Shown: one piece after another, positions 15,506 to 33,552 of the stretch | Position numbering within the stretch: the first letter of the stretch is position 1 | Layout of the letters: every line of letters begins with the position of its first letter | Assembly (NCBI GenBank): GCA_041661505.1 | Contig: JBAZUF010000004.1 | Coordinates: 4,861 to 68,860, forward strand | Source: Patescibacteria group bacterium | GTDB taxonomy: Bacteria; Patescibacteriota; Patescibacteriia; Patescibacteriales; JBAZCA01 | DNA: 64,000 bases | Direction: 5' to 3' | Program-made: the position numbers and the translations under genes | Notes under the pieces: generated by a model | Told to the model about the DNA's origin: nothing | The model's input: only the letters and a program-made list of their open reading frames with translations | Databases searched by the model: none

Positions 15506-15551
15506 ATAATAATGGATGCCGGAATTCTCTTTCGTGGAATTCCCGCCCGCC

Positions 15552-16799: not shown

Positions 16800-16805
16800 A
16801 TTTTT

Positions 16806-17471
16806 TTATTCCGCGATTATATTTTTCATAAGCAGTTTCATTTTATCATTACTTTTTTTTCCGGGATAGTCTTCAACTCCCTGCGATACATCGATTATTT
16901 CCGGTTTGAGTTTATTAATATATGAATCTATATTCAAAGGGCTTATGCCGCCGGCCAGGATTAAAGGCCAGCCCAGTTTTCTTAGCCGGGTGAAAATTTT
17001 GTAATTTTCGAATTTTATCTTTTTTCCCCCGGCTTTATCTTCCGCGCTGGAAGCGTCCAGAAGAAATTTATCAATTTTTCCCAGGTATTTTTCAAGCTCC
17101 GTTTTTTTATCTTTTTCGTTTTCCTCCCCTTTTATTTTAAATGATTTCCAGACTTCGATATTTTTTTTAAACCGGCTGCAAAATTCCGGCGCCTCATCGC
17201 CGTGGAATTGCAAAACATCAACCAATCCGCTTGACGCTAATTTAAGCAGTTTTGACTCTTCCATGTTAACGGTAACGGCAACGATCTTTGGAAAATTTTT
17301 TGACACTGATTTAAGAGTTTTTATTTCTTCTGCCAGTTTCAGAAACTTGCCAATCGAAACAGATCTTGGGCTTTTGGGAAAATCAACAATAAAACCAAGA
17401 TAGCCGGCGCCCCGCGCTATGGCGTTCTTCGCGTCTTCCAAATTAGTAATTCCGCAAAATTTTACTTTCAT
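16806..17471 (-). CDS. trpF: phosphoribosylanthranilate isomerase
   Basis: MKVKFCGITNLEDA N-terminus; position between trpC and trpB. Confidence 0.85.
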   Translation of the reverse strand: MKVKFCGITNLEDAKNAIARGAGYLGFIVDFPKSPRSVSIGKFLKLAEEIKTLKSVSKNFPKIVAVTVNMEESKLLKLASSGLVDVLQFHGDEAPEFCSRFKKNIEVWKSFKIKGEENEKDKKTELEKYLGKIDKFLLDASSAEDKAGGKKIKFENYKIFTRLRKLGWPLILAGGISPLNIDSYINKLKPEIIDVSQGVEDYPGKKSNDKMKLLMKNIIAE

Positions 17472-18328
17472 ATATTTTCGGCGGCGCCATCATCAAAGGC
17501 CATTAACTCGTCAATTGCTTCGCCGATATTCCCGGCTTTCATTAAGGATGTGCCGACTAAAATCGCGTTCGCGCCGGCCGCTTTCATTTTTACGGCGTCC
17601 AGCCGGCAATTAATTCCCGACTCCGCCACCTTTATTATATCATCAGGGATTAAAGAGGAAAGCCGCGGAAAATTATTTATGTCAATTTTCATGCTTTTTA
17701 AGTCCCGGTTATTGATGCCGATGATGCTTGAGCCGGGTTTTTTTATACTGGACATAAGCCGCGCTATGCTTTGGCATTCTTTCTCATCGTGCGCTTCGAC
17801 CAAAACATCAAGATCCAGCCGGCCAGCCAAAGAATATAATTCTTTTAGCTGCTCTTCCTCTAGAATCGCGGCGATCAGAAGAACGGCGTCGGCGCCGAAA
17901 GCCTTGGATTCATATAGCTGGTAAGGATCAAAAATAAAGTCTTTGGAGAGGACCGGTAAACCGGCAGCCCCTTTTACCAAAGGAAGAAAGCCGAGACTGC
18001 CGTTAAAAAATTTTTCTTCGGTTATAACCGATATAGCGCTGGCTCCATGGTCTTCGAAAATCTGGGCGATTTCCAAAGGATTGAATCCTTCCCGGAAGGC
18101 CTTTTGGCCGGCAGAAGGGGAAAAATTTTTAATTTCCGCGATTAATGAAAGCCCTTCTTTCTTTAAGGTTCCGGCAAAATCCCTTTTCTCATAATTATTG
18201 CCCTCCTTATCGGCTTTGATTTTTTCTTGCAATCCGTCCAAACTGGTTTTTTTCATCCTTTCACTAATTTCCAGGATTTTGTTTTCGCAAATTTTATCAA
18301 GAATAGTATTGGTTTTTTTGTATTGCAT
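17468..18328 (-). CDS. trpC: indole-3-glycerol phosphate synthase
   Basis: IAEIKNFSPSAG and INNRDLKS motifs. Overlaps trpF by 4 nt. Confidence 0.9.
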   Translation of the reverse strand: MQYKKTNTILDKICENKILEISERMKKTSLDGLQEKIKADKEGNNYEKRDFAGTLKKEGLSLIAEIKNFSPSAGQKAFREGFNPLEIAQIFEDHGASAISVITEEKFFNGSLGFLPLVKGAAGLPVLSKDFIFDPYQLYESKAFGADAVLLIAAILEEEQLKELYSLAGRLDLDVLVEAHDEKECQSIARLMSSIKKPGSSIIGINNRDLKSMKIDINNFPRLSSLIPDDIIKVAESGINCRLDAVKMKAAGANAILVGTSLMKAGNIGEAIDELMAFDDGAAENI

Positions 18329-18378
18329 AAAGATATCTGGATAATTTAATGCGGCCTGGCCGCTCCGGCCAGGCAGGC

Positions 18379-19392
18379 CTATACTTTGTTTGAAATCTCA
18401 ATAAAGTCTTTAAGCTTGCTAAGAGCTTTTCCCGATTCAATCATATCTTTCGCCAATTTTATCCCTTCTTCCATTTTTCCGGCTTTCCCAAAAGCGAGCA
18501 TGCCCGCGGCCGAATTTAGAAGTACGGCGTTTAACTGGGCTTCGGTTGCCTTGCCATTTAAGACGTTTAAGAATATTTTGGCGTTTTGATCCGCGCCGCC
18601 GCCTTTTATTTCCTCTATATTATACAGCTTTAAGCCAAAATCGCGAGGATTTATTTCGCATCGCGCGGCCCGGCCATTTTCATAAGTATAAAGCTCTGTA
18701 TCGCCTCCGATGCTCACTTCGTCTAAACCTTCTTTTCCGTGAACTAGAATTACTTTTTTAGCGCCGGTCTGTATCAAAGTTTTGGCGATTATTCCGGCTT
18801 TGGACGCGTCCGCCAATCCAATCAGCTGATGGGTGGCTTGGGCGGGATTCAGCATTGGGCCTAAAATATTAAAGTATGTTTTTTTCCCGTATTCGGCCCG
18901 CGCGTCTTTAACATGCCTCAAGGCTGGATGGAAATTCGGCGCGAACATGAATACGATGCCGGCTTCTTTTAAGCATTCTTTCGCCTGGTCCGGATCAAGA
19001 TTTATTTTCACGCCCAGTTTTTCCAATACGTCGGCCGAACCGCATTCGCTTGAAGCGGCCCGGTTGCCGTGCTTAGCCACCGGAATTCCCGCGGCCGCGC
19101 AAACTATCGCGGAAACCGTGGAAATGTTAAAAGTACTGAACCCGTCTCCGCCGGTTCCGCAGTTATCCAGCGTATCGAAATCTATTTTTACCCTGGCCAT
19201 TTTTTTCCGCGTCGCTTCGACAATTCCCGCGAGCTCCTCTTCGGTCATTTCTTTTTCCTCGAAAGATTTGAAAATTCCAATAATTTCATCTTTAGCCAAT
19301 TGTCCTTCTATGATGTTCATCTGCATTTCGCATGCTTGTTCACGGGTGAGATTTTTTTTGCCTTTCAGCAGTTTTAAAATTTCATTTATCAT
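18379..19392 (-). CDS. trpD: anthranilate phosphoribosyltransferase
   Basis: DNCGTGGDGFSTFNIST and KHGNRAASS motifs. Confidence 0.9.
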   Translation of the reverse strand: MINEILKLLKGKKNLTREQACEMQMNIIEGQLAKDEIIGIFKSFEEKEMTEEELAGIVEATRKKMARVKIDFDTLDNCGTGGDGFSTFNISTVSAIVCAAAGIPVAKHGNRAASSECGSADVLEKLGVKINLDPDQAKECLKEAGIVFMFAPNFHPALRHVKDARAEYGKKTYFNILGPMLNPAQATHQLIGLADASKAGIIAKTLIQTGAKKVILVHGKEGLDEVSIGGDTELYTYENGRAARCEINPRDFGLKLYNIEEIKGGGADQNAKIFLNVLNGKATEAQLNAVLLNSAAGMLAFGKAGKMEEGIKLAKDMIESGKALSKLKDFIEISNKV

Positions 19393-19397
19393 AAAAA

Positions 19398-20012
19398 TTA
19401 TTTATCTCCTAAAATAAAATTTTTAAGCAGTATTTTTCCGCCTTCAGTGGCGAAAGATTCCGGGTGGAATTGGATTCCGCAGATTGGATATTTTTTGTGC
19501 TTTAGCCCCATAATTTCGCCGGTATCGGCGGCGCGGGCGGTTATTGCAAGGCATGAGGGAAGGGATTTAGCATCGGCTACAAGAGAATGGTAGCGCATGA
19601 CTTCAAGGTTTTGGGGCAGGCCGCGGAACAACCCTTTAGAGTCATGCATTATCCGGCTTACTTTTCCGTGCATCGGCCGCTTGGCTCTTATGACTTTTCC
19701 CCCGCAGTAATGGGCGATGCCTTGCATGCCCAGGCAAACGCCTAAAACCGGAATGGTTTTTCCCAGCCGGGTTATAACCTCGGCGCACACCCCGAAATAA
19801 GCCGGTTCGGACGGATCGCCGGGGCCGGGGGAAATTACTATTTTATCAAAGCCGCTTTTTTCAATCTGTCCGGCGGTAATTTCGCTGTTCCTTTTTACTA
19901 TAAGCTCAAAGGGCCGGTTTTCGGCTTCTAAAATTTCGCCGATATACTGGTAAAGGTTGTAAGTAAAGGAATCGTAATTGTCGATTATCAGGATTTTCAT
20001 AGAATTATTCAA
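19398..20012 (-). CDS. trpG: anthranilate synthase component II (glutamine amidotransferase)
   Basis: Class I GATase (GVCLGMQ, QFHPES). Overlaps trpE by 8 nt. Confidence 0.9.
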   Translation of the reverse strand: MNNSMKILIIDNYDSFTYNLYQYIGEILEAENRPFELIVKRNSEITAGQIEKSGFDKIVISPGPGDPSEPAYFGVCAEVITRLGKTIPVLGVCLGMQGIAHYCGGKVIRAKRPMHGKVSRIMHDSKGLFRGLPQNLEVMRYHSLVADAKSLPSCLAITARAADTGEIMGLKHKKYPICGIQFHPESFATEGGKILLKNFILGDK

Positions 20013-21417
20013 ATTCTTTTAGAACTTTCTTCATCGCGAAAAGCTTACTTTTAATTTCGGCGTATTCTTTTCCCGGTTTTGAGTCATAAACAATCCCGCC
20101 GCCGGTCTGGGCGTAGCCCTTATTTTTGTAAATGAATAATGACCTGATGGGAATGGCAAAAGTACATTCGCCGGAAAAGCCGAAATGCCCGACCGCGCCG
20201 CCGTAAGGGCCGCGCGCCTCATTTTCCTCGCGCTCGATTATTTTCATCGCTTCGATTTTTGGCGCGCCAGTCAAGGTTCCGGCCGGGAAATTGGCGGCCA
20301 GGGCGGAAAAGGCGTCTTCGCCTTCCCGGATGATGCCGGCCACTTCTGAAGAAATATGCTGGACGTGGCTGAATTTTTTTACATCCATGGCGTTTTTCAC
20401 TTTGACGGAACCGAACCGGGCGACCCGGCCGATGTCGTTTCTGTGCAAGTCGATTAGCATTGAATGTTCGGCGATTTCTTTCGGATCGGATAAAAGTCGG
20501 CGGGTAAGTTTTAAATCTTCGGCCCGGCTGGTCCCGCGAGCGGCCGTCCCGGCCAAGGGAAAAGTTTCCATTTCCCCCTCTCTTAACCTGAATAAAAGCT
20601 CGGGCGATGCGCCGATTATTTTTTCCGGACCGAATTTGAGGTAAAACATGTGGGGCGAAGGATTGACCTTCCGCAGACTTTCATAAATTAAAATATCATC
20701 TCCCCTTATTTCAAATTCGCTTTTAAACCCGGCCACGCACTGGAAGATTTTTCCCTCGGTTATGTCTTTTTTTATCCTTTTTACCATCGCCTCATGCTCT
20801 TTTTTGGTTTTTGTGTCCCGGATGAATTTTACCTTAAGTTTTTTCGGGCCGGAATTTTTTACCGCTGCGCCGCCGCCCTTTTTGCCGAAGGCCATTTTTT
20901 TTATCAAGGGCGCGCGGTTTTGGCCGTAGTGAAAGTAAAAAGATTCGCCCGTCATTTTATCGTAAACCAATCCGTCGGTGTAAACCCCGAATTTAAACTG
21001 GCTAAAATTTTTATGCGGCGCTAGATTAATAGCCGGCTCAAAATAATTCATGCCTTCGTAGGCGATATAGCCGATAAGGCCTCCGGCGTATTGGCGGGAA
21101 ATTACGTTATTGGGAACAATTTTCCTTAAGGCGTAATACGGATTTTCGACCCGGAATTTTTTAGTTTCAATCTTGCCGTTTTTGGCGCGGCAGTTTGTAA
21201 GGCTTAATTCATTTCCGGCGGCGGCCAAAATTGCTTCCGGGCCGAACCCGATTACGTGATAGCGCGAGCGGCCGCCCTCTTCGCCCAAGGATTCGAGAAT
21301 GAAGCAGTCTTCGAAATTTTCTTCAATTTTTTTGAATAGCTCAAAAAAATCAGCGTCCTCGGCGAATTTTATATAGCTCGGTTTTTTATTCTTAAGTTTT
21401 ATTTTCGGCAGCGTCAT
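20005..21417 (-). CDS. trpE: anthranilate synthase component I
   Basis: Chorismate-binding enzyme (FPAGTLTGAPK, GPYGGAVG). First gene after the T-box leader. Confidence 0.9.
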   Translation of the reverse strand: MTLPKIKLKNKKPSYIKFAEDADFFELFKKIEENFEDCFILESLGEEGGRSRYHVIGFGPEAILAAAGNELSLTNCRAKNGKIETKKFRVENPYYALRKIVPNNVISRQYAGGLIGYIAYEGMNYFEPAINLAPHKNFSQFKFGVYTDGLVYDKMTGESFYFHYGQNRAPLIKKMAFGKKGGGAAVKNSGPKKLKVKFIRDTKTKKEHEAMVKRIKKDITEGKIFQCVAGFKSEFEIRGDDILIYESLRKVNPSPHMFYLKFGPEKIIGASPELLFRLREGEMETFPLAGTAARGTSRAEDLKLTRRLLSDPKEIAEHSMLIDLHRNDIGRVARFGSVKVKNAMDVKKFSHVQHISSEVAGIIREGEDAFSALAANFPAGTLTGAPKIEAMKIIEREENEARGPYGGAVGHFGFSGECTFAIPIRSLFIYKNKGYAQTGGGIVYDSKPGKEYAEIKSKLFAMKKVLKEFE

Positions 21418-21502: not shown

Positions 21503-21781
21503 AAAAAACCTCCCATCCTTTTATCTAAATAAAATATTTTAGATAAAAGGACGAGAGGTTATCCCGCGGTGCCACCCTTTTTTCCTCCGCCCGAGGCGGA
21601 GAACGCTTACTGACTCGTAAATTGAAATCAGTTATCCTCTGGTTACGGAGGAAGCCGGGCCCTCACTAGCGCAAGAGCCGCCTTTCCCGTCCTGTATTGC
21701 GCAAGACGGGGTAAACTAGACCCAGTCCCTTGGCAGAACCAAGGGATCCAGTTTTAGGCTTTATAGTTGTTAAATTGCTTA
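21503..21781 (-). promoter_or_regulatory. T-box leader (tRNA-sensing riboswitch) of the trp operon, with a terminator
   Basis: The minus strand reads AAAAAAGGGUGGCACCGCGGGAUAACCUCUCGUCC, with the T-box core at 21563-21577. It is preceded by a Stem-III-like hairpin CUCCGCC-UCG-GGCGGAG. A long terminator hairpin at 21509-21558 ends in U6. Confidence 0.85.
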
Positions 21782-22402: not shown

Positions 22403-22436
22403 AAAAAAACCGCCCGACTTTGATGGGGCGATTTTT
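22403..22436 (-). terminator. terminator after aroC (usable on both strands)
   Basis: Stem cgccc/gggcg (22411-22415/22426-22430). The minus strand has a U7 tract (22409..22403) and the plus strand has atttttgtttt. Confidence 0.55.
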
Positions 22437-22490: not shown

Positions 22491-23564
22491 TTATTTATAG
22501 GCTTTATAGCGCAGGTAATGGTCAAGGATTACCAAGGCGGCCATAGCCTCGACGATGGGAACCGCCCGGGGAACGATGCAGGGGTCGTGCCGGCCGGCGG
22601 CCTTTAAAGTGATGGATTTATTTTGGCGGTTGAGCGTTTCTTGGGCTTTGGCTATTGTTGAAGTCGGCTTAAAGGCCACCCGGAAATAAATATTTTCGCC
22701 GTTTGATATTCCGCCCAAGGTTCCGCCGGAGAAATTGGTGCGGGTTTTGACTTGGCCTTTTTCCGCGTAAAACGAGTCGTTGTGTTCGCTCCCGCGCATT
22801 TCCACGGCGCAAAAGCCTGACCCGATTTCAAAACCTTTGGCGGCATTGATCCCGAGCATAGCCTTGGCCAGATCGGCCGGCAATTTATCAAATACCGGAC
22901 TGCCTAAGCCGACCGGGGCATTCTTAATTACCGCCGATACGCTTCCGCCGATTGAGTCGCCTTCCGCTTTAACGGCTTCGATAAGGGCAATCATTTTTTT
23001 CGCCGCTGTTTCATCCGGGCATCTTACCGGATTGGCTTCGATTTTTTTTAAGCTTACTTTGGAATAATCAACTTCGGATTTTACGCTTCCTACCTGATCG
23101 ACAAAGCCTATAATTTCAACGCAAAATTTTTCCTTTAAATATTTTTTGGCGATGGCTCCGGCCGCCACCTGGGCTAATGTCGTCCTGGCCGACGCCCGGC
23201 CGCCGCCGCGCCATTCGCGGTTTCCGTATTTGGCCGAATAAGTAAAATCCGCGTGCCCCGGGCGGTAAACTTCTTTTAAGTTTTCGTAGTCTTCCGAACG
23301 GGCATCGCTATTCTTAACCAGTAAAAGAATCGGAGCGCCGGTGGTCTTGCCGCCGGTAACGCCCGATAAAATTTGGATTTTATCTTCTTCTTTCCTTTGG
23401 GTGGTAATTTTACTTTGCCCGGGCTTTCTCCGGTCAAGCTCTTTTTGGATGTAAGCTTCAGTTATTTCCAATCCGGCCGGACAGCCGTCAATTATGGCGC
23501 CTACGCCTGCTCCGTGCGATTCGCCGAAAGTAGTAATAGTAAATAATTTTCCAAAAGTATTCAT
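22491..23564 (-). CDS. aroC: chorismate synthase
   Basis: [18 protein letters not shown] and [13 protein letters not shown] motifs. Confidence 0.95.
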
Positions 23565-23591
23565 AGTTTTTCTCGATTGGATATTAATATG

Positions 23592-24263
23592 TTATTTAAT
23601 GATGCCCATTTTCCGGTAAACATTTTTCAATTCTTTAACCGTAAGCTGGCCCGGCGCGGTAGTTTTTCCGATAGAAGCGAAAGTGAGGAATCCGCCCCAA
23701 AGCGGCGATAAGAGCCGTGTAATTTTTCCTTTTTCGCCCATGCCCAAAACTATCATTTCTTGATTTTTCTTCCGGCTGGCTAGCAGTTCAAAAAGTTTTT
23801 GATTGTCTTTTTCATTATTAACCATGGTAACAATTTTCATTATATTAGCTTTGCTAACTCCCATCTTTTTCACAACATCCTTAAGCTTCGGCAAGGCCGG
23901 GGTTTTTTTAAAGTCGTGGTAGGAGCAGATTATCTTGGAACCATTCGGCCCGCCCGGAATTTTAATTTTTGAAATGGCCGGCAATTCTATGTCAACGAAA
24001 TCAAAACCGGATTTTAAAGCTGTGTTTAATATGGCGAGCCTTTCTTTTTCCGCGCCCGGAAATTTACCGCCTTCGCTTTTTTTCCGGCAGGTAAAAATGG
24101 AACTTTTTTTAACCGCTCTTTTGATGGCGGAGATATGTTCCGGCTTTAAATTTTTAATGTAATCCGCCCTTAACTCAACCCAATCAGCCTGCTTTTGGGC
24201 AATCCGCAGATTAGACAAGAACTCTTTTAAATTTTTTTCCGCAACCACCGCGCAAATTCTCAT
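23592..24263 (-). CDS. aroD: 3-dehydroquinate dehydratase, type I
   Basis: Size, operon position and a type I-like layout (VELRADY...). Confidence 0.75.
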   Translation of the reverse strand: MRICAVVAEKNLKEFLSNLRIAQKQADWVELRADYIKNLKPEHISAIKRAVKKSSIFTCRKKSEGGKFPGAEKERLAILNTALKSGFDFVDIELPAISKIKIPGGPNGSKIICSYHDFKKTPALPKLKDVVKKMGVSKANIMKIVTMVNNEKDNQKLFELLASRKKNQEMIVLGMGEKGKITRLLSPLWGGFLTFASIGKTTAPGQLTVKELKNVYRKMGIIK

Positions 24264-24282
24264 ATTAATCTTGCCGATATTA

Positions 24283-25596
24283 TTATTTTAAATTTTTAGA
24301 CAATACTTTTCTCATGGCTCGAACCGGCGCTTTTTTCCCGGTGTAATATTCAAACTGGGCCGCGCCCTGGTATAAAAGCATTTCCAGCCCAGGAATAATT
24401 TTCGCTCCTTTCTTTTTCGCGTCTTTTAATAATCTGGTTATAGGAGGCGAATAAACCGCGTCAAAAACAATTTGTCCTTTATGTAAAAACTCGGCCGGGA
24501 CCGGCGTTTTGTTAATCCGCGGCTTCATTCCGACCGGTGTCGCGTTAATAATAATGTCAAAATTATTAACCCGGTGAATTTCCGAAAAATCACAATAACT
24601 CGCCTTGAATTCTTTGGCAAGTTTTCCGGCCCTTTCCGCGTCCCGCCCGAATACGGTTAGCTTCGCCCCTTTTCTTGTTACGCCGTAAGCGATAGCCCGG
24701 GAAGCGCCGCCGGAACCCAGCAAAGCTACTTTTTTATTTTTCAGCCGGGTCATTTTTTCCAAAGGAATCACCGCTCCCTGCCAATCAGTATTATAGCCCG
24801 TCAACCGGCCTTTGTCATTCACTACCGTATTCACCGCTTTGATTTTTTTTGCTACCGGGTCGATTTTATCAAGGAATTTCATTACGGCTTCCTTGTGCGG
24901 CATGGTGCAGGTTAAGCCGCGGATGCCGGATATTCTAACCGCTTTTACCGCGTTTTTTACTTCGGGTTTTTTTATCCGGGCGGATAAAAAAATAAACCGA
25001 TTGTCGATTTTAAGCGCCCGGTAGGCGGCGTTATGCATGGCGGGCGAAAGAGAATGGGCGATCGGGTCGCCGATTATCAGGCAGACTTTTTTCAAATCTT
25101 TTTCCAGGACGGCTATAATTTTCTCGCTAATCGCGTTAAGATCGGGGTTTTTTATACAGTCAATAACTTCATCCGCGTACAATGAATATAGCGGGCTTCG
25201 CAATTTAAAAAGTTTTCTGGCCGATTCCCGGTCCTTAAATAGCGGACGGGTTTTGTCGTTTTTCAGCCTTTTTTCGATATTTTTAAACCCATCTTTTAAA
25301 TAGATGATTTTTCCGTTCTTTTTCAGATTGCGGATATTTTTTTCATTCATAACAATGCCTCCGCCCGTGGAAATTATTTTTTTATCAATATCCGACAATT
25401 CCTTTGCCACCCGGGCTTCCAGCGGCCGGAAAGTTTTTTCCCCGCCTTTCTCAAAAATTTCATTGATGTTTTCTCTCCGGCTTTTTTTAACAATCAAATC
25501 ATCCATTTCAACCGCCTGAAATCCCAGCCTTTTAGCCAGGATTTTTGACAGGCTGGTTTTTCCCGAACCCATAAAACCGATTAAGACGATGTTCAT
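24283..25596 (-). CDS. aroKE: bifunctional shikimate kinase / shikimate 5-dehydrogenase
   Basis: The N-terminus has the P-loop GFMGSGKT of shikimate kinase. The C-terminal ~270 aa match AroE (IIGDPIAHSLSPAMHNAA, NTDWQG, LGSGGASRA). Confidence 0.85.
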   Translation of the reverse strand: MNIVLIGFMGSGKTSLSKILAKRLGFQAVEMDDLIVKKSRRENINEIFEKGGEKTFRPLEARVAKELSDIDKKIISTGGGIVMNEKNIRNLKKNGKIIYLKDGFKNIEKRLKNDKTRPLFKDRESARKLFKLRSPLYSLYADEVIDCIKNPDLNAISEKIIAVLEKDLKKVCLIIGDPIAHSLSPAMHNAAYRALKIDNRFIFLSARIKKPEVKNAVKAVRISGIRGLTCTMPHKEAVMKFLDKIDPVAKKIKAVNTVVNDKGRLTGYNTDWQGAVIPLEKMTRLKNKKVALLGSGGASRAIAYGVTRKGAKLTVFGRDAERAGKLAKEFKASYCDFSEIHRVNNFDIIINATPVGMKPRINKTPVPAEFLHKGQIVFDAVYSPPITRLLKDAKKKGAKIIPGLEMLLYQGAAQFEYYTGKKAPVRAMRKVLSKNLK

Positions 25597-25622
25597 ATAA
25601 TAAGGTTAAGCACTTTACTCTA

Positions 25623-26909
25623 TCAGGCTAATTTAATTCCCGCGCTTTTAATTATATTCCAGAATTCAGGGAATGATTTTGACACGACTTCGGGATTTTT
25701 AATAACCATGCCCGGGATTTTCGCGCCGGCTATGGCAAAGGACATTGCCATGCGGTGATCGTTGTAGGTGCTGATTTTCGCGCCGCGAGGATTTCCGCCC
25801 TGGATGGTTATCGAATCATGGCTGATAGCGGAGCGGATGCCCATTTTTTTGAGTTCGGTTTTTAACGCGCTTAACCGATCGGTTTCTTTGTGGCGCAGGG
25901 TGGACAAGCCGGTAATTTTAGTAGATCCTTTTGAAAAAGCCGCTACAACCGCTAGCGTCTGGGCCGTATCAGGCATATCTTCCATGTTAACCTTAATTCC
26001 TTTTAGAGTTGCCGGCCCCTTAACTTCAATCCAGTTTTCTTTTTTATTTTTTATGACTTTGGCGCCCATGCGTTTTAGTAAATCGGGAAATTTAGCGTCG
26101 CCCTGCGATGAGTTAGGCGGAATATTTTTTACTTTGATTCGGCTGCCGGTAATGGAAGCCAATGCCCAGAAATAACTGGCACCCGACGCGTCGCCCTCAA
26201 TCCGGTATTGGCCGGGACTATAGCGCGCGACCGGGCTTACCGAGTATCTTTTATAGTTATTATTTTTTACAAAAACTCCATGCTCTTTCAGGCTCTCCAG
26301 AGTCATGTCGATAAAAGATTTGGAGACCTGTTTGCCTAAAACTTTTATATTTAATCCCCGTTTTAATGCCGGCGCGATTAAGAGAAGGGAAGTGAAAAAC
26401 TGGCTGGATACTTTGCCGGGCATTTTTACCTCTCCTCCGGTGATTTTACCCCCGATAATTTTTATGGGCGGACAATTTTTTTCTGCCAGGTATTTTATTT
26501 CCGCTCCAAGCGACCCCAAAGCTTTTACTAAATCGCCGATCGGCCGCTTTCTCATGCGGCGAGAACCGTCTAATGTTATTTCTCCGGGTGTGAGGACGGA
26601 AAGGGCGGCAAGGAACCGGAAAGTAGTTCCGGCTGGACCGACATTAATGCGGCCGTTAAATGGTTTAAAGCGGCCGCCATTTCCTACAATTTTAGTTTTG
26701 TCCCCAACTTTAGTTATCCGGATTCCTAGTTTTTTTAAGGCGTTAATCATCACCCGGGTGTCGTCTGAAAGGGAAACGCCCCGTAAAATCGTCCGGCCGT
26801 CCGTAAGCGCGGCCATAACCAAAGCCCGGTTAGAAAAACTTTTGGAACCGGGCATTATAATTGATTTATTGATTAATTTTTTCAAGGGTTGGATTTTGTA
26901 TGGCCGCAT
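25623..26909 (-). CDS. aroA: 3-phosphoshikimate 1-carboxyvinyltransferase (EPSP synthase)
   Basis: PGSKSFSNRALVMAAL and LRHKETDRL motifs. Confidence 0.95.
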   Translation of the reverse strand: MRPYKIQPLKKLINKSIIMPGSKSFSNRALVMAALTDGRTILRGVSLSDDTRVMINALKKLGIRITKVGDKTKIVGNGGRFKPFNGRINVGPAGTTFRFLAALSVLTPGEITLDGSRRMRKRPIGDLVKALGSLGAEIKYLAEKNCPPIKIIGGKITGGEVKMPGKVSSQFFTSLLLIAPALKRGLNIKVLGKQVSKSFIDMTLESLKEHGVFVKNNNYKRYSVSPVARYSPGQYRIEGDASGASYFWALASITGSRIKVKNIPPNSSQGDAKFPDLLKRMGAKVIKNKKENWIEVKGPATLKGIKVNMEDMPDTAQTLAVVAAFSKGSTKITGLSTLRHKETDRLSALKTELKKMGIRSAISHDSITIQGGNPRGAKISTYNDHRMAMSFAIAGAKIPGMVIKNPEVVSKSFPEFWNIIKSAGIKLA

Positions 26910-26981
26910 TTTACAATGTAATAGCTGTATTATAATGGCCTGCAGTGAAGTATTGCTGTACCCGCGCCATGCTTATTGAGA

Positions 26982-28070
26982 TTAACTTATGTAGCCTTTT
27001 TTTACCAATAGTTCGGCGTTTAAAATTCCTCCTCCGGCGGCGCCGCGAACCGTGTTATGGCTTATAGCGGCGAATTTATAATCAAAAATTTTGCATTTTC
27101 GGAGGCGTCCGATGGTTACGGCCATGCCTTTCTCCGCGTCCCGGTCTTTTCTCGGCTGGGGCCGGTTGTCTTCCCGGCGGTAGATGATTGGCCGCAAAGG
27201 CGCGAAAGGGAGTTCTAATTCCTGCGGAAGGGCTCTGAATTTTTGCCAGATTTTTATTATTTCTTCACGCTTGGGCTTCTTGCCGTTAAACTTAAAACTG
27301 ACGCAGGCCAGATGTCCGTCCGCTACCGGCACTCGGTTGCAATGGGCGGAAATTTTCAAAAAGTTGGTATTGGCGAATTTTCCTTTTTTAATGGAGCCTA
27401 ATATTTTCAAAGGCTCTTCTTCGGTTTTATCTTCCTCGCCCGCTATAAAGGGAACGACATTGCCGATCATGTCTAGTGACGGGACGCCCGGATAACCGGC
27501 GCCGGAAACAGCCTGCAGGGTGGCAATAAAGATTTTTTCTATGCGGTAGCCCGCCTGAATTATTGCGAAAATCGGAGTAATATAGCTTTGCAAACTGCAA
27601 TTGGGCTTGGTAACGATAAACCCTTTTTTCCAGCCCCGGTTTATTTTCTGGACCGGAATTATTTCAAGATGCCGGTGATTTATTTCCGGGATGAGCATCG
27701 GAACGTCTTCGGTCCAGCGGTTGGCCGAGGCGTTCGATACGACCGGAATTCCGGCGGCCGCGTATTTCTCCTCCATTTTTTTAATAAGATTTTTATCCGG
27801 CAGTTCAAAGGCCGAGAAAACAAAATCACAGCGCTTTTTTGCCGCCTTGATATTGGCAACATCCGCGACAATCAAGGATTTTACGTTTTCAGGGATCGGG
27901 ACAGGCATTTGCCAGCGGCCTGCCACCGATCTTTCATAGCTAACGCCGGCGGAATTAGCCGAAGCCGCGACGTGAGTTACCGTAAACCAGGGGTGGTTGC
28001 GAAGCAGTTTTATGTAATTTTGGCCTACCATGCCGGTAGCCCCGAGAATCCCGACTTTGAATTTTTTCAT
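26982..28070 (-). CDS. asd: aspartate-semialdehyde dehydrogenase
   Basis: GILGATGMVGQ, NCSLQ active-site region, SGAGYPG. The start was chosen at MKKFKVGILG, an internal Met of the ORF that ends at 28115. Confidence 0.85.
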   Translation of the reverse strand: MKKFKVGILGATGMVGQNYIKLLRNHPWFTVTHVAASANSAGVSYERSVAGRWQMPVPIPENVKSLIVADVANIKAAKKRCDFVFSAFELPDKNLIKKMEEKYAAAGIPVVSNASANRWTEDVPMLIPEINHRHLEIIPVQKINRGWKKGFIVTKPNCSLQSYITPIFAIIQAGYRIEKIFIATLQAVSGAGYPGVPSLDMIGNVVPFIAGEEDKTEEEPLKILGSIKKGKFANTNFLKISAHCNRVPVADGHLACVSFKFNGKKPKREEIIKIWQKFRALPQELELPFAPLRPIIYRREDNRPQPRKDRDAEKGMAVTIGRLRKCKIFDYKFAAISHNTVRGAAGGGILNAELLVKKGYIS

Positions 28071-28139
28071 AAACGAAATAACCGAGCCCCGCCAGCTCGC
28101 TGGCAGGACAGGCAAAGGGCATAAAAATGCCTTAATATT

Positions 28140-29531
28140 TTATTTTATGAATTCTTTGTGCAGGGCCCGGACCATTTTTTCCATTTCTTCGGTTTTTACG
28201 ACCGCTTCCAGCCGGACGCAATTTTTGTAAGGAAAAGCGCCGAGCTCGGTATAGGGGCAAAGACGGATCAGGATGTCATTAAAACGGTTTACGTCTTTCC
28301 AATCAAGATTGCCGATTAAGATCACCATGTTAACCGGCGATACTTCCAGTTTTTTTACTTGCTTTTTTAGCTCGGCAATCATCTCTTCAAAGCCGTTGCC
28401 GTTATTTTCCGCCACTAAAATGAGCTTGTCCCGGGTGTTTCTGGTTATGTCCAAATTTACTTTATGGCTGGTCAAAATCCGCGTTACATTGGCCAGGTAG
28501 CCGTAATTATTCATCCGGTCATCGGTAATAATTAAGAGGGATAAGTTTTTTTTGAAGCTGACGATTTTCGCGCCCTTAACGCTTTTAATATAGGGCCCGA
28601 CTTGGGTTTTTTTAGCCGGGTCGATAATCGCCGCCACCTCGGCCGGAGTCTTAAACATTTTTACGTATTGGATGGCCTTGTCATGGATAACCTTGCCGGA
28701 TTCGGCCGCTTCAGCATAGCTTATGAATGGAACGGTTATCGCGTCTTTGGCGATTTTTGGATCAGCGGATAAAACTCCCTCCACGTCTTTCCATAAAATA
28801 ATTTTTTCCGCTTTTAAGGCCGCCCCGAGGAAGCAGGCGGTCGTATCGGTTCCGCCCCGGCCTAAAGTAGTTGTATTGCCCTCCAAAGTTTCTCCGCAAA
28901 ATCCAGGGATAACCGGAATTTCTTTGATTTTCAAAATTGTTTTTCGGGCGGATTTGGCCGAAAGATCATAATTGATGTTGGCATTTTTAAAACAATCGTC
29001 GGTGATGATGGGGATTTCTTCGGCAAACACCGCCCGGGCGGAAAACCCCCGCGACTTAAGATAATAGGAAAAGCAGACGCTCGCCAGCTTTTCGCCATAA
29101 GCCGTAATTTTATCGTCAAAAATTGGCAAGAATCCGAAGCGGAGAAGGGTGACGAGATCATTTTCGAGCTCACCGAAAACCCGATCCAGGGGCGCTTTGG
29201 CGTTTTTTCTCCAGTCCCGGGAAACGCAAACTTCTTCCAAAAGCTTCATGTGCTTTTCGTTCAAGCTATTGACGAAAGGTTTTATCAGGCTGTCGATATA
29301 TTTTTCGCTCGCTCCGCCCAGTCTTTGATTCCTTCTTATTTTTTCTTTGATATGCCCAAGAAATAAAATAATCTCGTCAGTTACTCCTTTTAGCGCTGAA
29401 ACCACTACAATCGGCCGGTAGCCGGCTTTTAGCTGTTCGGAAATCCTTTTTTCGGTATAGGGGATAAGTTTTTTTATCATTATCCCTCCGCCGAATTTAT
29501 TGACGATGATTTTAGTCCCGGATTTTGGCAT
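28140..29531 (-). CDS. aspartate kinase
   Basis: Amino-acid kinase fold (IVNKFGGG, TLGRGGTDTTA) with a C-terminal ACT-like region. Confidence 0.85.
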   Translation of the reverse strand: MPKSGTKIIVNKFGGGIMIKKLIPYTEKRISEQLKAGYRPIVVVSALKGVTDEIILFLGHIKEKIRRNQRLGGASEKYIDSLIKPFVNSLNEKHMKLLEEVCVSRDWRKNAKAPLDRVFGELENDLVTLLRFGFLPIFDDKITAYGEKLASVCFSYYLKSRGFSARAVFAEEIPIITDDCFKNANINYDLSAKSARKTILKIKEIPVIPGFCGETLEGNTTTLGRGGTDTTACFLGAALKAEKIILWKDVEGVLSADPKIAKDAITVPFISYAEAAESGKVIHDKAIQYVKMFKTPAEVAAIIDPAKKTQVGPYIKSVKGAKIVSFKKNLSLLIITDDRMNNYGYLANVTRILTSHKVNLDITRNTRDKLILVAENNGNGFEEMIAELKKQVKKLEVSPVNMVILIGNLDWKDVNRFNDILIRLCPYTELGAFPYKNCVRLEAVVKTEEMEKMVRALHKEFIK

Positions 29532-29571
29532 AATTTATTTTTCCAAAAATTATTATTGGCGCGATTTAATC

Positions 29572-30582
29572 TTATTTTTCGGTTATGGTTTCTTTGATTT
29601 TTTGGCCAAAGTGGCGGCCCATCTCTTCTTCCTGGATAAAAGCCAAAACCCGGTCGCCCGGCTTTAGCTTGGTTACGGAAACAGGACTGCCGTCATTTTT
29701 TGTAAGGCGGATAGTCTCGGCATTTTGCATAACTAAAGAAAGCTCCCGGCCGCCCGCAATACCGCGGACAATGAGCATCGGCCGCCGCTCGATTTTCACC
29801 CGGCCGACAATCACTTCCTCGGTATTGCCTTTTTGGTCAACTACCAAAGCCTTGAGGCCGCTTTTTAATTCTCCCAAATACTTGGTCTTATCGCCGGGCA
29901 TCCGGATATAGGCATGGGTGCCGCCGGCGTTAACCCGAAAGGGGCGGGGGTCGCAATAAGGAGTCTCCACATTTTCATTATATACTAAAAACATAGCTTT
30001 GGAAGAGTCCCCCACTAGCATGCCCTGGCCGGGGGATAAGGTGGAAGCAGTATCAACTACTACCCGGTCGCCCAGGCCCAGCTGTTCAATGCTTATGATT
30101 TCCGCCTCGCAAAGCTCTAGTTTTTCATTTTGGATTTCTTTTATCAGTTTGGCTGTTTTTTTTATTTCATTTAAATCGCCGGTTTCCAAAAGAATTCCGT
30201 CAGAACCGATTTCCAAAGTTAGAAAAGCCAGTTTAGCCTCATTATAATTTCTGACGTGCTGGATTAAATTGGAAGTTTTGGAAATTAAATTTTCCAGAGG
30301 GATGATAGTCCAGTCAAAATTTCTTATGATGACCGGAATCTTTCCCTTATAGGCCACCACCCGGTTTTCGCATTCCTTGTTCTCTATCTTCACTTCATCG
30401 GCATTTTCTCCGATGATGAAATCAGCCGGAGCTTTGGTAGAAATAATTTTTGCCCGGGAAAGTTCCCTGGTTTTTTCTATATCTTTTTCCGCGACATAAA
30501 TCGCTTCAAATCCCGACTCGATCGCGGCGGTAATTAATTTTTTATCCCAGTTTGGCGGCTGGTACCAGAATTTTTTTTGCAT
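29572..30582 (-). CDS. 3-dehydroquinate synthase II (archaeal type, MJ1249-like)
   Basis: The N-terminus KKFWYQPPNWDKKLITAAIESGFEAIYV and overall length match my recollection of the archaeal DHQS-II family. It is adjacent to ADH synthase. Confidence 0.8.
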   Translation of the reverse strand: MQKKFWYQPPNWDKKLITAAIESGFEAIYVAEKDIEKTRELSRAKIISTKAPADFIIGENADEVKIENKECENRVVAYKGKIPVIIRNFDWTIIPLENLISKTSNLIQHVRNYNEAKLAFLTLEIGSDGILLETGDLNEIKKTAKLIKEIQNEKLELCEAEIISIEQLGLGDRVVVDTASTLSPGQGMLVGDSSKAMFLVYNENVETPYCDPRPFRVNAGGTHAYIRMPGDKTKYLGELKSGLKALVVDQKGNTEEVIVGRVKIERRPMLIVRGIAGGRELSLVMQNAETIRLTKNDGSPVSVTKLKPGDRVLAFIQEEEMGRHFGQKIKETITEK

Positions 30583-30631
30583 ATGCGAGGCGCCATTAAT
30601 TATGGCTTAATAAGGCAATCATGGAGCCTGG

Positions 30632-31420
30632 TTATCTTTTTAAGTTTACCTCAATTTTAGAAGCATTGTAAACCGCGTCTTTAATTTTTTCAAGCATGCC
30701 CGAAACGTCCTCGGACTGGAAGACATTTCTTCCGACCGAGACTCCGGCCGCGCCGACCCGGACGCAATCCCGGATTGAGGAAAGCATTATTTCTTCCGAA
30801 CCCTTGGCTCCGCCGGCGATTACTACCGGAATCGGACAGCCTTCGACCACCTCGCGAAAACTTTCCGCGTCGCCGGTAAAAGGGACTTTGACGATGTCGG
30901 CGCCAAGCTCGGCCGCTACCCGGGCGGCATGCTTAACCCGGGCGGTATCCCGGTAATGGACAATCTTTCCGTCAATCATGGTCCGCGGATACATCATGGC
31001 GAGTAAAGGCAGGCCTTCTTCCTGGCATTCTCTTGCCACGGTTCCCAAATCTTTTAACATTTCCCCTTCGTGCTCGTTTCCTAAATTAAGATGGATGGAA
31101 ACGCCCTGGGCGCCCAGTTCTTTAACTTCGCGGGCGGTAGCAATTAAAACTTTTCGAAGCGAGCCGGAAAGGCCGGTGGAAGCCGAAATATGAATAAAGA
31201 CCGGCAAATCGCCGATAACATCCTTGTATAATTTATAAATCCCTTTGTGGATAACAATGGCATCGGCTCCGCCGGCCTTAACCTTTTTGATTATTTCATC
31301 CATCTTGATGAGGCCGGGAATAGGCCCGTCGGTAACGCCATGATCCATCGGAACAATAACTGTCCGCTTGGAAATGGGGTTGATAATTTTTGACAATAGC
31401 TCACGCTTGGTGTTAGTCAT
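30632..31420 (-). CDS. 2-amino-3,7-dideoxy-D-threo-hept-6-ulosonate (ADH) synthase, MJ0400-like class I aldolase
   Basis: RTVIVPMDHGVTDGPIPGL, LLAMMYPR, AELGADIVKVPFTGD and GAAGVSVGRNVFQ closely parallel the archaeal enzyme as I remember it. Confidence 0.8.
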   Translation of the reverse strand: MTNTKRELLSKIINPISKRTVIVPMDHGVTDGPIPGLIKMDEIIKKVKAGGADAIVIHKGIYKLYKDVIGDLPVFIHISASTGLSGSLRKVLIATAREVKELGAQGVSIHLNLGNEHEGEMLKDLGTVARECQEEGLPLLAMMYPRTMIDGKIVHYRDTARVKHAARVAAELGADIVKVPFTGDAESFREVVEGCPIPVVIAGGAKGSEEIMLSSIRDCVRVGAAGVSVGRNVFQSEDVSGMLEKIKDAVYNASKIEVNLKR

Positions 31421-31469
31421 AGTATTGGCTGAAAGGGATTTACGCGTTTCGCGCGAGACCCCTAAATTT

Positions 31470-31553
31470 AAAAAAACCGGCTGTCTTTCAAGGCCGGGTT
31501 ATATTCTTAAGTAATTTATTAGTCTTTAATTTATTCTGCAAAAAGCCGGCCTT
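31470..31553 (-). promoter_or_regulatory. aromatic-operon attenuator: antiterminator 31553..31546:31497..31490 versus terminator 31497..31477 plus U7
   Basis: On the minus strand AAGGCCGG, inside the leader ORF, is the perfect complement of CCGGCCUU. The latter overlaps the terminator stem CCGGC/GCCGG, which is followed by UUUUUUU (31476..31470). Confidence 0.7.
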
Positions 31554-31609
31554 TTAATAAGGTTAAAATAGAAATAAAAGTAGCTAAACCAGATTTGGCC
31601 GAATTTCAT
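31526..31609 (-). CDS. aromatic leader peptide MKFGQIWFSYFYFYFNLIKRPAFCRIN
   Basis: 27 codons, 10 of them aromatic, with the contiguous run W-F-S-Y-F-Y-F-Y-F. It lies between the promoter and the first gene of the aromatic operon. Confidence 0.8.
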   Translation of the reverse strand: MKFGQIWFSYFYFYFNLIKRPAFCRIN

Positions 31610-31638
31610 AAAATATTGGTGATTTTTGTATATCCTAA

Positions 31639-31667
31639 ATAATACACATTTTCAAAAGACGTGTCAA
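31639..31667 (-). promoter_or_regulatory. promoter TTGACA-17-TATTAT
   Basis: On the minus strand the -35 hexamer is at 31667..31662 and the -10 hexamer at 31644..31639. Confidence 0.6.
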
Positions 31668-31698
31668 GAGCAGTAAAAATTGGTTAAAATTCGCTAAT

Positions 31699-31736
31699 AA
31701 AAAACACCTCCTGACTTTGACGAGCCAGGAGGGTGG
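31699..31736 (-). terminator. terminator after argB
   Basis: The minus strand reads CACCCUCCUG-loop-CAGGAGGUG followed by U6 (31704..31699). Confidence 0.7.
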
Positions 31737-31768
31737 AGAAATCCGGGGCACCATCTCTCCGGAGTCAG

Positions 31769-32672
31769 TTAATTGGTGATTAGCCGTCGGACCACCTCGG
31801 TTCCGATTCCCTCTTTGGTAAAGAACTCTAAAAGGACGGAATGAGGCAAGCGGCCGTCAATCAAATGCACCCTTGCCGACGCCGGAGTTTATCGCCTCCA
31901 CGGCACTCTCGATTTTTGGGCGCATGCCTCCGGTGATTACGCCTTCCTGGATTAAGCCTTCCACCTCGTCAGTCCACAGGGTGCTTATTACCGAATCTTC
32001 ATCATTTTCATCTCCAGGAACGCGCAGAAGGCCAGGAACGTCGGAGATAAATACGAGCTTCGCGGCCTTAAGGGTTTTTGCTACAAAGAACGCCACTTCA
32101 TCGGCATTCATGTTGCAGAACTGGCCACACTCGAAATATCCGAGAGGGGTGATTATAGGGATAATATTCAGTCCCAGCATCTGTTCAATTTGATTAATAT
32201 CCGCGCGTATCGGCTCGCCCACCAATCCTAAGTCTGCGGGCATTCCCGATTCGTCAAGCATTTTTTTCTTTACTGCCGTAAAAGTATCCTCACCGTACAA
32301 CTGCCAGGCTCGGCCGCCGCGTTCGTAGATTTTGCTGACCAATCTGCGATTAATCTTTTTCAGCACTTCCTGCACTACGTCCAGAGTGGGCTGGTCAGTG
32401 TAACGCAGACCGTTTACTTTCCTGGTTACTATCCCTCTCTCTTCCGAAAGCTTGTTGATTTCCGGTCCGCCCCCGTGTACGAGAATGGGTTTTATACCCA
32501 GTATCTGCAAGACTGCAAGATCTGAAAGCAGGTCGTCCTCATGTTCAGGATCTTCAATTACACTGCCGCCTGACTTGAATACCATAATTTGGTTTTTAAA
32601 AGCCTTGGCATAGGAAAGCGTTCCCAGCACTACTTGAATTTTTTCCAACCCTTCTTTAATGCGCGCGTTCAT
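31769..32672 (-). pseudogene. argB: acetylglutamate kinase with a 1-nt frameshift near the C-terminus
   Basis: The ORF 31857..32672 stops at ...SGVGKGAFD*. Skipping nt 31871 restores the canonical tail [26 protein letters not shown]..., which ends at 31769. Confidence 0.75.
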
Positions 32673-32894
32673 GATTTTCTCCCTTTTCTTGTTTTTTAGG
32701 ATTTAGGATTAGTTAAGTGTATTTTAGCCGCAGAAGGAAAGAGATTGGGCGCGAATCGGGCAAACTCCTTTCTGCTGCGGCAAATCACAAAAGATTATTA
32801 AAGAGCAGTAATGTTTAAAGCCAACAGTAATTTATATAACAAAAAATACGTATTGCAAAGGTTTTACGGCATTTGCCCGTAAAAACCGCGGGGG

Positions 32895-32923
32895 TTGAAA
32901 ATTTGGGAAAATAAAGGTAAGAT
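32895..32923 (+). promoter_or_regulatory. promoter TTGAAA-17-TAAGAT
   Basis: Hexamers read by eye upstream of pheA. Confidence 0.4.
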
Positions 32924-32970
32924 TGGATTAGCCTGGCTTCTTGCAGGCGAGTTAAATATAACTTATTTAT

Positions 32971-33552
32971 ATGAGCGCCAAAATAATTATCGGGGTTTCA
33001 GGAAACAAGGGAAGTTTTACCGAAGAGGCCGCCAAGCACTACTGCACCGAAGAAAAGATTCAAAATTATGAGCTTGCCTATCTCACTTCCGTAGAAAATG
33101 TTTTGCGCGATCTGGGTAAAGGAAAAATCGATAAAGGCGTTTTTCCGATCGAAAACTCGACCGGAGGAGTTGTTATTGAGGCGGTGGAAGCTATGGCCCG
33201 CTATATATTTGCCATCGAAAAAATGTTCGAAATTGAGATAAAGATGAATCTGCTTATGAAAAAAGGAATAAAGCCGGAAGATATAAAATCAATTACTTCG
33301 CACCAGCAGGCGCTGCGTCAATGCCGGATGTATTTAAAAAGAAAATATCCCAAAGCCGAACTCTGCGAATATCCGGATACGGCGACGGCCGCCAAGGATT
33401 TAGCCGACGGAGTATTGCCGGAAACTACCGCCGTAATCGCCCCGAAAATCTGCGCCGAATTGTATGATTTAGAATTGGCCGAAGAGGGCATCCAGGATTT
33501 AAAATTTAATTTTACGTCTTTTATCGTAGCCGCGAACGAGCATGCCTATTAA
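32971..33552 (+). CDS. pheA: prephenate dehydratase, catalytic domain only (no ACT domain)
   Basis: GNKGSFTEEAA, FPIENSTGGVV and NFTSFIV correspond to PDT motifs. At 193 aa it ends where the ACT domain would begin. Confidence 0.8.
   Translation: MSAKIIIGVSGNKGSFTEEAAKHYCTEEKIQNYELAYLTSVENVLRDLGKGKIDKGVFPIENSTGGVVIEAVEAMARYIFAIEKMFEIEIKMNLLMKKGIKPEDIKSITSHQQALRQCRMYLKRKYPKAELCEYPDTATAAKDLADGVLPETTAVIAPKICAELYDLELAEEGIQDLKFNFTSFIVAANEHAY

Follow-up and report, generated by a model that had tools for sequence, protein, structure and literature searches.

Among the amino-acid leaders of enterobacteria, those of ilvGMEDA/ilvBN (Ile/Leu/Val) and thrABC (Thr/Ile) are multivalent. For the aromatic amino acids, E. 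coli pheL-pheA and trpL-trpEDCBA are leader-peptide attenuators (PMC11802643; for pheL, PMC3082878). In Corynebacterium glutamicum, the aroR leader (Phe-Tyr-Phe) lies upstream of the aroF operon and responds to Phe, not to Tyr (PMC11802643, describing Neshat et al. 2014). In Acholeplasma, the uORFC-13-1 motif precedes aroF (PMC8632094), and in D. vulgaris a "putative attenuator" defined by structure only is listed before aroA' > aroB' > ..., with no leader peptide mentioned (PMC1173090). Here we describe an aromatic leader peptide upstream of an aroA' operon in a 64-kb window (the whole stretch of DNA that was analysed, from contig JBAZUF010000004.1), whose AroA' is identical to an NCBI protein from the metagenome-assembled genome (MAG) of a "Patescibacteria group bacterium". 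We find that this leader is very probably, as judged from sequence, a classical ribosome-mediated transcription attenuator of an operon for chorismate synthesis. An earlier note on the same DNA had proposed an aromatic leader in control of the common shikimate operon, and the content of the operon, conservation in close relatives and analogues in distant ones all support this proposal. Its statement that known leaders each sense one amino acid does not hold, as the ilvGMEDA/ilvBN and thr leaders demonstrate.

All coordinates follow the numbering of the 64-kb window, and the leader, its promoter and the aro operon all lie on the minus strand. The element opens with a -35 hexamer TTGACA (31667..31662) and, after a 17-nt spacer, a -10 hexamer TATTAT (31644..31639), both read directly in the sequence. 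Together they agree with the consensus at 11 of 12 positions and are the top sigma-70-like match in a promoter scan of 31000..33200. Between this promoter (31667..31639) and the start of aroA' (31420) lies a short open reading frame (ORF) of 27 codons plus stop (31609..31526; stop codon 31528..31526) that encodes MKFGQIWFSYFYFYFNLIKRPAFCRIN. The promoter and the ORF thus stand where the earlier note had placed them, and translation bears out its count of 10 aromatic residues in 27 with Trp, Phe and Tyr all represented. Eight of these residues fall within nine consecutive codons, W7-F15 (TGG TTT AGC TAC TTT TAT TTC TAT TTT; 31591..31565), which hold one Trp, four Phe and three Tyr codons ahead of the chorismate operon. 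Such a run is exceptional: it is the single nine-codon window with 8 aromatics among the 127,948 in all six frames of the 64 kb, and the leader ORF alone reaches 8 aromatics in 9 codons among the 474 ATG-initiated mini-ORFs of the window. The argB-like gene upstream closes with a strong terminator of its own (31732..31707), and therefore the element is a self-contained promoter-leader unit.

Downstream of the ORF, we find an intrinsic terminator (31497..31470) composed of CCGGC (31497..31493), an 11-nt loop, GCCGG (31481..31477) and a U7 tract (31476..31470) that sits 49 nt ahead of the aroA' ATG. This hairpin between the ORF and the first structural gene is weak (-7.8 kcal/mol) and is conserved in five relatives. 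Within the ORF, segment 2 (AAGGCCGG; 31553..31546), the 5' strand of an antiterminator, is the perfect complement of CCGGCCTT at 31497..31490. The latter site is segment 3 (CCGGCCUU), which can pair either with segment 2 or, via 31497..31493, with segment 4 of the terminator. The 2:3 helix has 8 bp and a predicted energy of -11.8 kcal/mol (-16.6 including inner helices), and it covers the entire 5' arm of the terminator, so that the two structures share a strand. A perfect complement of at least 8 nt to the terminator 5' arm arose in only 0.32% of 5000 dinucleotide-preserving shuffles of the leader. Both the complement and the CCGGC-11 nt-GCCGG-U7 terminator that it overlaps are present as the earlier note had described them. 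Further upstream, segment 1 (UCGGCC, codons 3-5; 31602..31597) can pair with GGCCGG at 31551..31546 in a helix of 6 bp and -7.5 kcal/mol, which is part of the minimum free energy (MFE) structure. The order of promoter, ORF, antiterminator and terminator, as well as their spacings, resembles that of the E. coli trp leader.

A comparison with close relatives, defined as contigs whose AroA' is 77-86% identical (L089, L090/L091, L092 and L099), shows which parts of the leader are maintained. All of them carry an orthologous leader ORF, with the peptides MKIGQILFSYFYFYFNLNPRPVFCIN in L089, MKTVQLWFSYFYFYFNLTPRPVFCIS in L090/L091, MKFGQIWFSYFYFYFTLKTRPVFCINQ in L092 and MKTVQLWFSYFYFYFNLQPRPVLCID in L099. 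In an alignment of the window, L089, L090 and L092, the -35 and -10 hexamers, the aromatic core F-S-Y-F-Y-F-Y-F, AGGCCGG, CCCGGCC...GCCGG and the U6/7 tract are invariant, and the 5' untranslated region, the spacer and the terminator loop (7-11 nt, also in its sequence) vary. The AGGCCGG of segment 2 is invariant in all five family members, and in the window and four relatives alike the U-tract ends 130-140 nt past the AUG. Among four relatives, the three codons of the stretch 8-15 that vary do so only synonymously and at the third position (TAT/TAC, TTC/TTT), such that the amino acids specified by this regulatory core are retained, whereas substitutions outside the core are mostly non-synonymous. 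Because the core changes only synonymously and the rest drifts, selection acts on the identity of the aromatic codons and on the pairing segments rather than on a protein, a pattern that marks a regulatory leader peptide. The stems are invariant within this family, which leaves no covariation to score, and support for them comes instead from replacement at the level of architecture in more distant relatives. The same comparison bears on the idea that the mini-ORF encodes a functional small hydrophobic peptide, acting at the membrane or in trans, whose position before the aro genes is incidental or secondary. The peptide is indeed hydrophobic and conserved among close relatives, and trans-acting leader peptides are known, such as peTrpL in Sinorhizobium (PMC7298713). 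Nevertheless, across lineages it is the aromatic composition that is conserved and not sequence or length, residues outside the core vary freely, and a terminator/antiterminator and aroA' invariably accompany the ORF. We therefore regard a peptide function of this kind as extremely unlikely.

What we observe directly are the sequence elements with their mutual exclusivity and conservation, together with their link to aroA' operons; from these we infer ribosome stalling, ribosome-polymerase coupling, a transcription start site and termination itself in the following scheme. Transcription would begin near 31632, about 7 nt past TATTAT, and the 27-codon leader would be translated as RNA polymerase advances. 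When charged tRNA-Phe or tRNA-Tyr (possibly also tRNA-Trp) is scarce, the ribosome would stall within codons 7-15 and leave segment 2 just outside its footprint, free to pair with segment 3 once the latter has been made. A ribosome covers roughly 12-13 nt downstream of its A site, and segment 2 starts 14 nt past the first base of the last core Phe codon; hence the start of segment 2 falls just beyond the stalled ribosome. The 2:3 pairing would then block the CCGGC/GCCGG terminator, and polymerase would read into aroA' and seven further genes. When aromatic amino acids are plentiful, the ribosome would cross segment 2 to the stop codon and sit between segments 2 and 3, segment 3 would pair with segment 4, and transcription would end at U7, about 140 nt past the AUG. 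The mixed codons would constitute an OR gate, in which the common pathway is derepressed when any one end product runs short. Since the operon makes chorismate, its attenuation makes functional sense. Folding simulations of the window and four relatives are consistent with both states. With the RNA masked 5' of position +13 from the last core Phe codon, as for a stalled ribosome, the MFE structure is the 2:3 antiterminator in four of the five sequences; with the RNA masked to 13 nt past the stop, as for a ribosome that has reached the stop codon, all five form the terminator.

Several observations weigh against this scheme or parts of it. The ORF ends with a stop codon 18 nt beyond segment 2, such that a terminating ribosome does not cover segment 2 and the exclusion of the 2:3 helix would have to be steric or kinetic; the L001 group of distant relatives differs in that stop codon and segment 2 overlap. 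At equilibrium, the naked RNA is predicted to take the antiterminator, and thus the branch of the E. coli trp leader in which absence of translation gives termination is not predicted here. In the stalled state of L090, the terminator is as stable as the antiterminator. The stability of the terminator stem is modest (5 bp, 11-nt loop, -7.8 kcal/mol). Segment 1 is the weakest part of the model, as its GGCC is retained in L089 and L092 and broken (GUCC) in L090 and L099. The earlier note had suggested a fold of 31420-31640 as a check; this fold does contain the 1:2 pairing in its MFE structure, but as a whole it is no more stable than shuffles (z = 0.12), a lack of excess stability that we judge uninformative because it is expected of a short-helix switch in AU-rich RNA. 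Lastly, any sensing of Trp depends on the single codon W7, which in the nearest relative, L089 (86% AroA' identity), reads TTG (Leu) instead of TGG.

The weak hairpin also raises the question of whether control is exerted through translational coupling, Rho-dependent polarity or occlusion of aroA' translation instead of an intrinsic terminator. A stem of 5 bp fits such a view, and the hairpin was missed by a simple terminator scanner, whose loop limit was 8. On the other hand, the hairpin and its U6-7 tract are invariant in five relatives even though the loop varies, and the bona fide terminator that closes the operon (22430..22403, minus strand; CGCCC, 10-nt loop, GGGCG, G, U7) has the same minimal design, which suggests that a weak 5-bp design is functional in this organism. 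Indeed, there are hints that short GC stems with large loops may be its ordinary terminators. The gap between terminator and aroA' start is 49 nt in the window versus 5 nt in L092, and so no conserved structure involves the aroA' start. Based on this evidence, we consider control without the intrinsic terminator very unlikely and retain attenuation at the U7 tract.

To place this leader in a broader context, we surveyed 84 aroA' loci with at least 300 nt of upstream sequence (GC content 0.28-0.68), gathered from a metagenome scan with the AroA' alignment and from other loci. A locus was scored positive if an ORF with at least 6 aromatics in 10 residues lay no more than 300 nt upstream of aroA' on the sense strand. 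Aromatic mini-ORFs were found at 32 of the 84 loci on the sense strand and at 0 of 84 on the antisense strand. Where the upstream gap is 150 nt or more, as it is at 48 loci, 28 are positive, and several negatives (L002, L009, L051, L072, L094) have leaders just under the threshold or further upstream. Phe and Tyr codons occur in all 32 aromatic leaders and Trp codons in 24. In many positives, such as L010 and L012, a strong terminator follows, and the ORF contains a second copy of the terminator 3' arm. The automated terminator/antiterminator finder often picked the wrong, first U-run, especially in the high-GC family described below, and its output was used only qualitatively. Conversely, L003 and L093 have no leader directly upstream, and their aroA' sits behind an EPSPS-chorismate synthase fusion. 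The call for L098 is ambiguous, and the candidate P0096 (Deltaproteobacteria) was rejected as a leader locus since it lies outside any aro operon. In all, the expectation of the earlier note that conserved W/F/Y-rich mini-ORFs precede ADH synthase homologs was borne out, both in five close relatives and in the 32 of 84 surveyed loci.

These data speak to another explanation, namely that the terminator and the alternative pairing are real but that a metabolite, a protein or a tRNA works the switch by binding, the ORF being a U-rich by-product. AU-rich leaders yield Phe, Tyr, Ile and Asn codons by chance, and antisense ORFs of low-GC relatives do reach 5-7 aromatics in 10. Yet 25 of the 32 positives come from the 60 loci with GC of at least 0.42, so that AT-bias cannot account for the Phe and Tyr codons, and aromatic ORFs recur at GC 0.52-0.68, beyond chance, with 0 on the antisense strand at a threshold of 6. 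Moreover, the core codons differ purely synonymously, and codon identity is all that is conserved besides the short pairing segments. No Rfam leader family, riboswitch or T-box (RF00230) matches 31200..32100 at E <= 10, and no Rfam leader family reaches its gathering score anywhere in the 64-kb window. A Shine-Dalgarno (SD) motif is absent ahead of the leader ORF, which would favour an untranslated by-product; however, few genes in this genome have SD motifs. Just 9 of the 54 predicted gene starts of the window are preceded, within 22 nt, by even a 4-mer SD-like motif, and the upstream regions are A/U-rich, which suggests that its genes mostly use SD-independent initiation and makes a leader ORF without SD normal for this organism. 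A switch that works without translation is therefore, in our estimation, very unlikely, and we continue to favour ribosome-mediated attenuation.

The leaders of distant Patescibacteria are unrelated in sequence to the window leader. They include NIWENLFFSFFVFYYFF, QWNSYWFFGF, NSYWFISF (in ...MNSYWFISF... of L005), NYFNYFGF (in ...NYFNYFGF... of L094), FYFTFNYFYFYFY, SFYFYFY (in ...SFYFYFYPE of the Roizmanbacteria L096/L097) and VFGFYFYFTF (in ...VFGFYFYFTF... of L100), and the leader of L095 reads MQKFYFTFNYFYFYFYASKRRGIC. They nevertheless share its composition and its logic: each ORF has, close to its end, a stretch that looks like the 3' arm of the terminator and is complementary to the 5' arm. 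For instance, in L001/L002/L006 (...NI(W/Y)ENLFFSFFV(F/S)YYFFNF(I/T)I) the stop overlaps GAGGC, the complement of the GCCUC arm of a CCUC/GAGG-U6 terminator, and in L004 (MKKLSIQWNSYWFFGFMGKS) AGCUGAU at the stop complements the AUCAGCU of the terminator. Two variants of this arrangement stand out. First, in the Moranbacteria-type loci L004 (3810..3835) and L005 (895..920), the aromatic ORF begins 6 nt past an extended -10 (TGtTATAAT-N6-ATG), and by sequence the peptide is probably translated from a leaderless mRNA, which is unusual alongside attenuation. Second, L096 (1558..1990) and likewise L097 have two aromatic leaders in tandem upstream of aroA', a second FYFYF leader lying about 300 nt further upstream than the first; the peptides are MKNLAIKFYFYFTRQCGG and MGIKSKSISFYFYFYPE, each with its own CCCCGC/GCGGGG terminator and U-tract. 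A GC-rich palindromic insert separates the two leaders, and fragments of an IS1595-family transposase lie upstream. Apart from these variants, in ten high-GC loci (L025, L027, L030, L037, L039, L043, L050, L063, L068 and L086), leaders 200-250 nt upstream of aroA' share the peptide pattern M..(C)WRR-[YF]x9-PG..CASTFKR. In these, a conserved GUCGAGG lies just ahead of the AUG and is complementary to CCUCGAC in the A-S-T codons, and there are duplicated CUUUUAAAAG boxes and a strong GCCGUGG.../...CCACGGC-U5-7 terminator. The high-GC leaders appear to be a distinct, well-conserved attenuator family that is suited to a covariance model.

How many amino acids the window leader senses is a separate matter. 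Codons for all three aromatics are present, as the earlier note had emphasized, but three-way sensing is not established by them; we regard trivalent Phe/Tyr/Trp sensing as plausible but unproven, at roughly even odds. The alternative is the same mechanism with a sensor that is effectively bivalent for Phe and Tyr, Trp being sensed separately at the trp operon. The core has one Trp codon versus four Phe and three Tyr codons, the one Trp codon is the one replaced in L089, the leaders of L001, L094, L095, L096 and L100 are without any Trp, and in C. glutamicum aroR just Phe limitation had an effect (PMC11802643). Additionally, a separate T-box-like leader precedes the trp operon of the window; it lies upstream of trpE (21417), in the region 21760..21503 (minus strand). 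Here RF00230 matches 21697..21544 with 36.9 bits (E = 1e-6 for the region), short of the gathering score of 93; since this model finds the trpE leader and is silent at the aro leader, the latter is not a T-box by this model. The trpE leader carries the canonical T-box sequence GGGUGGCACCGCG (AGGGUGGCACCGCG), a stem I that is very short (about 21749..21726) and precedes C-UGG-G, in which UGG (21724..21722) is a candidate Trp specifier, and a long terminator hairpin with U6 at about 21560..21503. T-boxes of this type may be under-called in Patescibacteria. Against a bivalent sensor, W7 is replaced in only one of the five members of the window's own family, and Trp in 24 of 32 surveyed leaders, usually inside or beside the run and in at least ten unrelated families, is far above expectation, as Trp is the rarest amino acid and the peptides are 20-30 residues long. 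Every surveyed leader has Phe and Tyr codons, and Trp codons are frequent, not universal. Taken together, bivalent sensing is a real possibility to which we give somewhat less than an even chance, and either form of sensing fits ribosome-mediated attenuation.

The regulated operon comprises eight genes (31420..22491, minus strand) that, by Pfam assignment, cover every step to chorismate, and we infer a single transcription unit from the shared strand, the short gaps and the terminator at 22430..22403. It begins with aroA', a DeoC-family aldolase named ADH synthase at NCBI (31420..30632), and aroB', DHQ synthase II (30582..29572). These are followed by aspartate kinase (29531..28140), aspartate-semialdehyde (ASA) dehydrogenase (28115..26982), aroA, EPSP synthase (26909..25623), an aroK-aroE fusion of shikimate kinase and shikimate dehydrogenase (25596..24283), aroD, type I dehydroquinase (24263..23592), and aroC, chorismate synthase (23564..22491). 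The operon follows the aspartate-semialdehyde (archaeal-type, ADH) route to dehydroquinate with a dedicated precursor supply, and the insertion of aspartate kinase and ASA dehydrogenase between aroB' and aroA fits this ASA-dependent route. In the Roizmanbacteria locus L096, these two enzymes are fused in one protein of 678 aa. The genes of the Phe/Tyr branch, encoding prephenate dehydratase and a prephenate dehydrogenase-chorismate mutase fusion, are divergent and run from 32971 on, and the trp operon (21417..14699) comes after the aro operon. Together, aro, trp, pheA and tyrA make an aromatic-biosynthesis cluster of more than 20 kb in a Patescibacteria MAG. Patescibacteria are usually described as lacking amino-acid biosynthesis and are regarded as auxotrophic. 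The closest genomic relatives of AroA' all belong to Patescibacteria MAGs (Parcubacteria, Paceibacterota and Moranbacteria).

Two further features were seen upstream of the leader. The argB-like gene (acetylglutamate kinase family; 32672..31769, minus strand) has an apparent frameshift near 31870..31857, where one ORF stops at ...GVGKGAFD* and an overlapping ORF in another frame carries the typical C-terminus, which points either to a pseudogene or to misassembly at a G-run. The divergent argB/pheA intergenic region contains a 24-nt imperfect inverted repeat (32724-32747 / 32761-32784, 79% complementary) and a palindrome, GGTTTTACGGCATTTGCCCGTAAAAACC (about 32861..32888), directly upstream of a promoter-like site of pheA, TTGAAA(32895)-17-TAAGAT. 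These repeats may act as operators or form leader structures, for argB or for pheA-tyrA, and an aromatic leader ORF is absent from this intergenic region.

Our findings have a number of implications for uncultured bacteria. In many of them, aromatic leader ORFs seem to be the main form of cis-regulation at aroA'/aroB' operons, no RNA-family model covers these ORFs, and recognising them would improve annotation. They also lend independent support to a role in aromatic amino-acid synthesis for operons of DeoC-like aldolase and DHQS-II. For this uncultured Patescibacteria lineage, the regulatory logic would be a multivalent leader peptide on the common trunk and a T-box-like leader on the Trp branch. 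Classic attenuation would imply coupled transcription and translation in these organisms, even though most of their genes are without a Shine-Dalgarno motif. Beyond the single locus, the evidence leaves it an evenly balanced question whether Phe/Tyr/Trp-rich leaders form an undescribed, widespread class of multivalent attenuators specific to the aroA'/aroB' ADH route, spanning GC 0.28 to 0.68 and including Patescibacteria as well as the leaderless-ORF and tandem variants. If so, this class would be the first evidence of ribosome-polymerase-coupled amino-acid sensing in the reduced-genome Patescibacteria radiation. Within a literature coverage that is incomplete, we found no description of Phe/Tyr/Trp leaders before aroA'/aroB' operons and none of leader-peptide attenuation in Patescibacteria.

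In conclusion, the window leader appears to be a real and conserved classical attenuator that is non-homologous to the leader families of Rfam; its mechanism is textbook and the conceptual gain modest. The view of the earlier note that a mixed aromatic leader on the common pathway is uncommon is only partly sustained: C. glutamicum aroR and the Acholeplasma aroF upstream ORF (uORF) are precedents, but the leader family itself is uncatalogued, and what is mildly novel is the host lineage, the tie to the ADH-type pathway and the wide uncatalogued distribution. Like E. coli pheL and trpL, the window leader has a short ORF with a run of end-product codons, mutually exclusive antiterminator and terminator structures, and a U-tract whose end lies about 140 nt past the AUG. 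However, pheL and trpL sense one amino acid each and control terminal branches, whereas the window leader has mixed Phe/Tyr/Trp codons and precedes the common trunk; it also has no homology to them in sequence or structure (Rfam, E <= 10), lacks an SD motif, and its naked RNA is predicted to form the antiterminator. The ilvGMEDA/ilvBN and thrABC leaders are similar in that codons for different end products of one shared pathway are combined in a single leader as an OR gate, and differ in their amino acids, operons and sequences, which are unrelated. The Acholeplasma motif is likewise a candidate Phe-codon uORF directly upstream of an intrinsic terminator and before the first shikimate-pathway gene, but it is a U run encoding at least one Phe, has a ribosome-binding site, precedes a classical DAHP synthase and is distributed only in Acholeplasma and environmental sequences. 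The D. vulgaris attenuator, compared here by its description, is also a predicted terminator/antiterminator upstream of an aroA'-aroB' supraoperon and probably belongs to the same broad phenomenon as the high-GC loci of our survey. Lastly, C. glutamicum aroR shares with the window leader mixed aromatic codons, ribosome stalling and control of entry into the common shikimate pathway, a likeness of functional analogy alone: aroR has three regulatory codons without Trp and precedes a classical DAHP synthase in a different phylum, whereas the window leader has eight or nine such codons and stands before the aroA'/aroB' (ADH) route.

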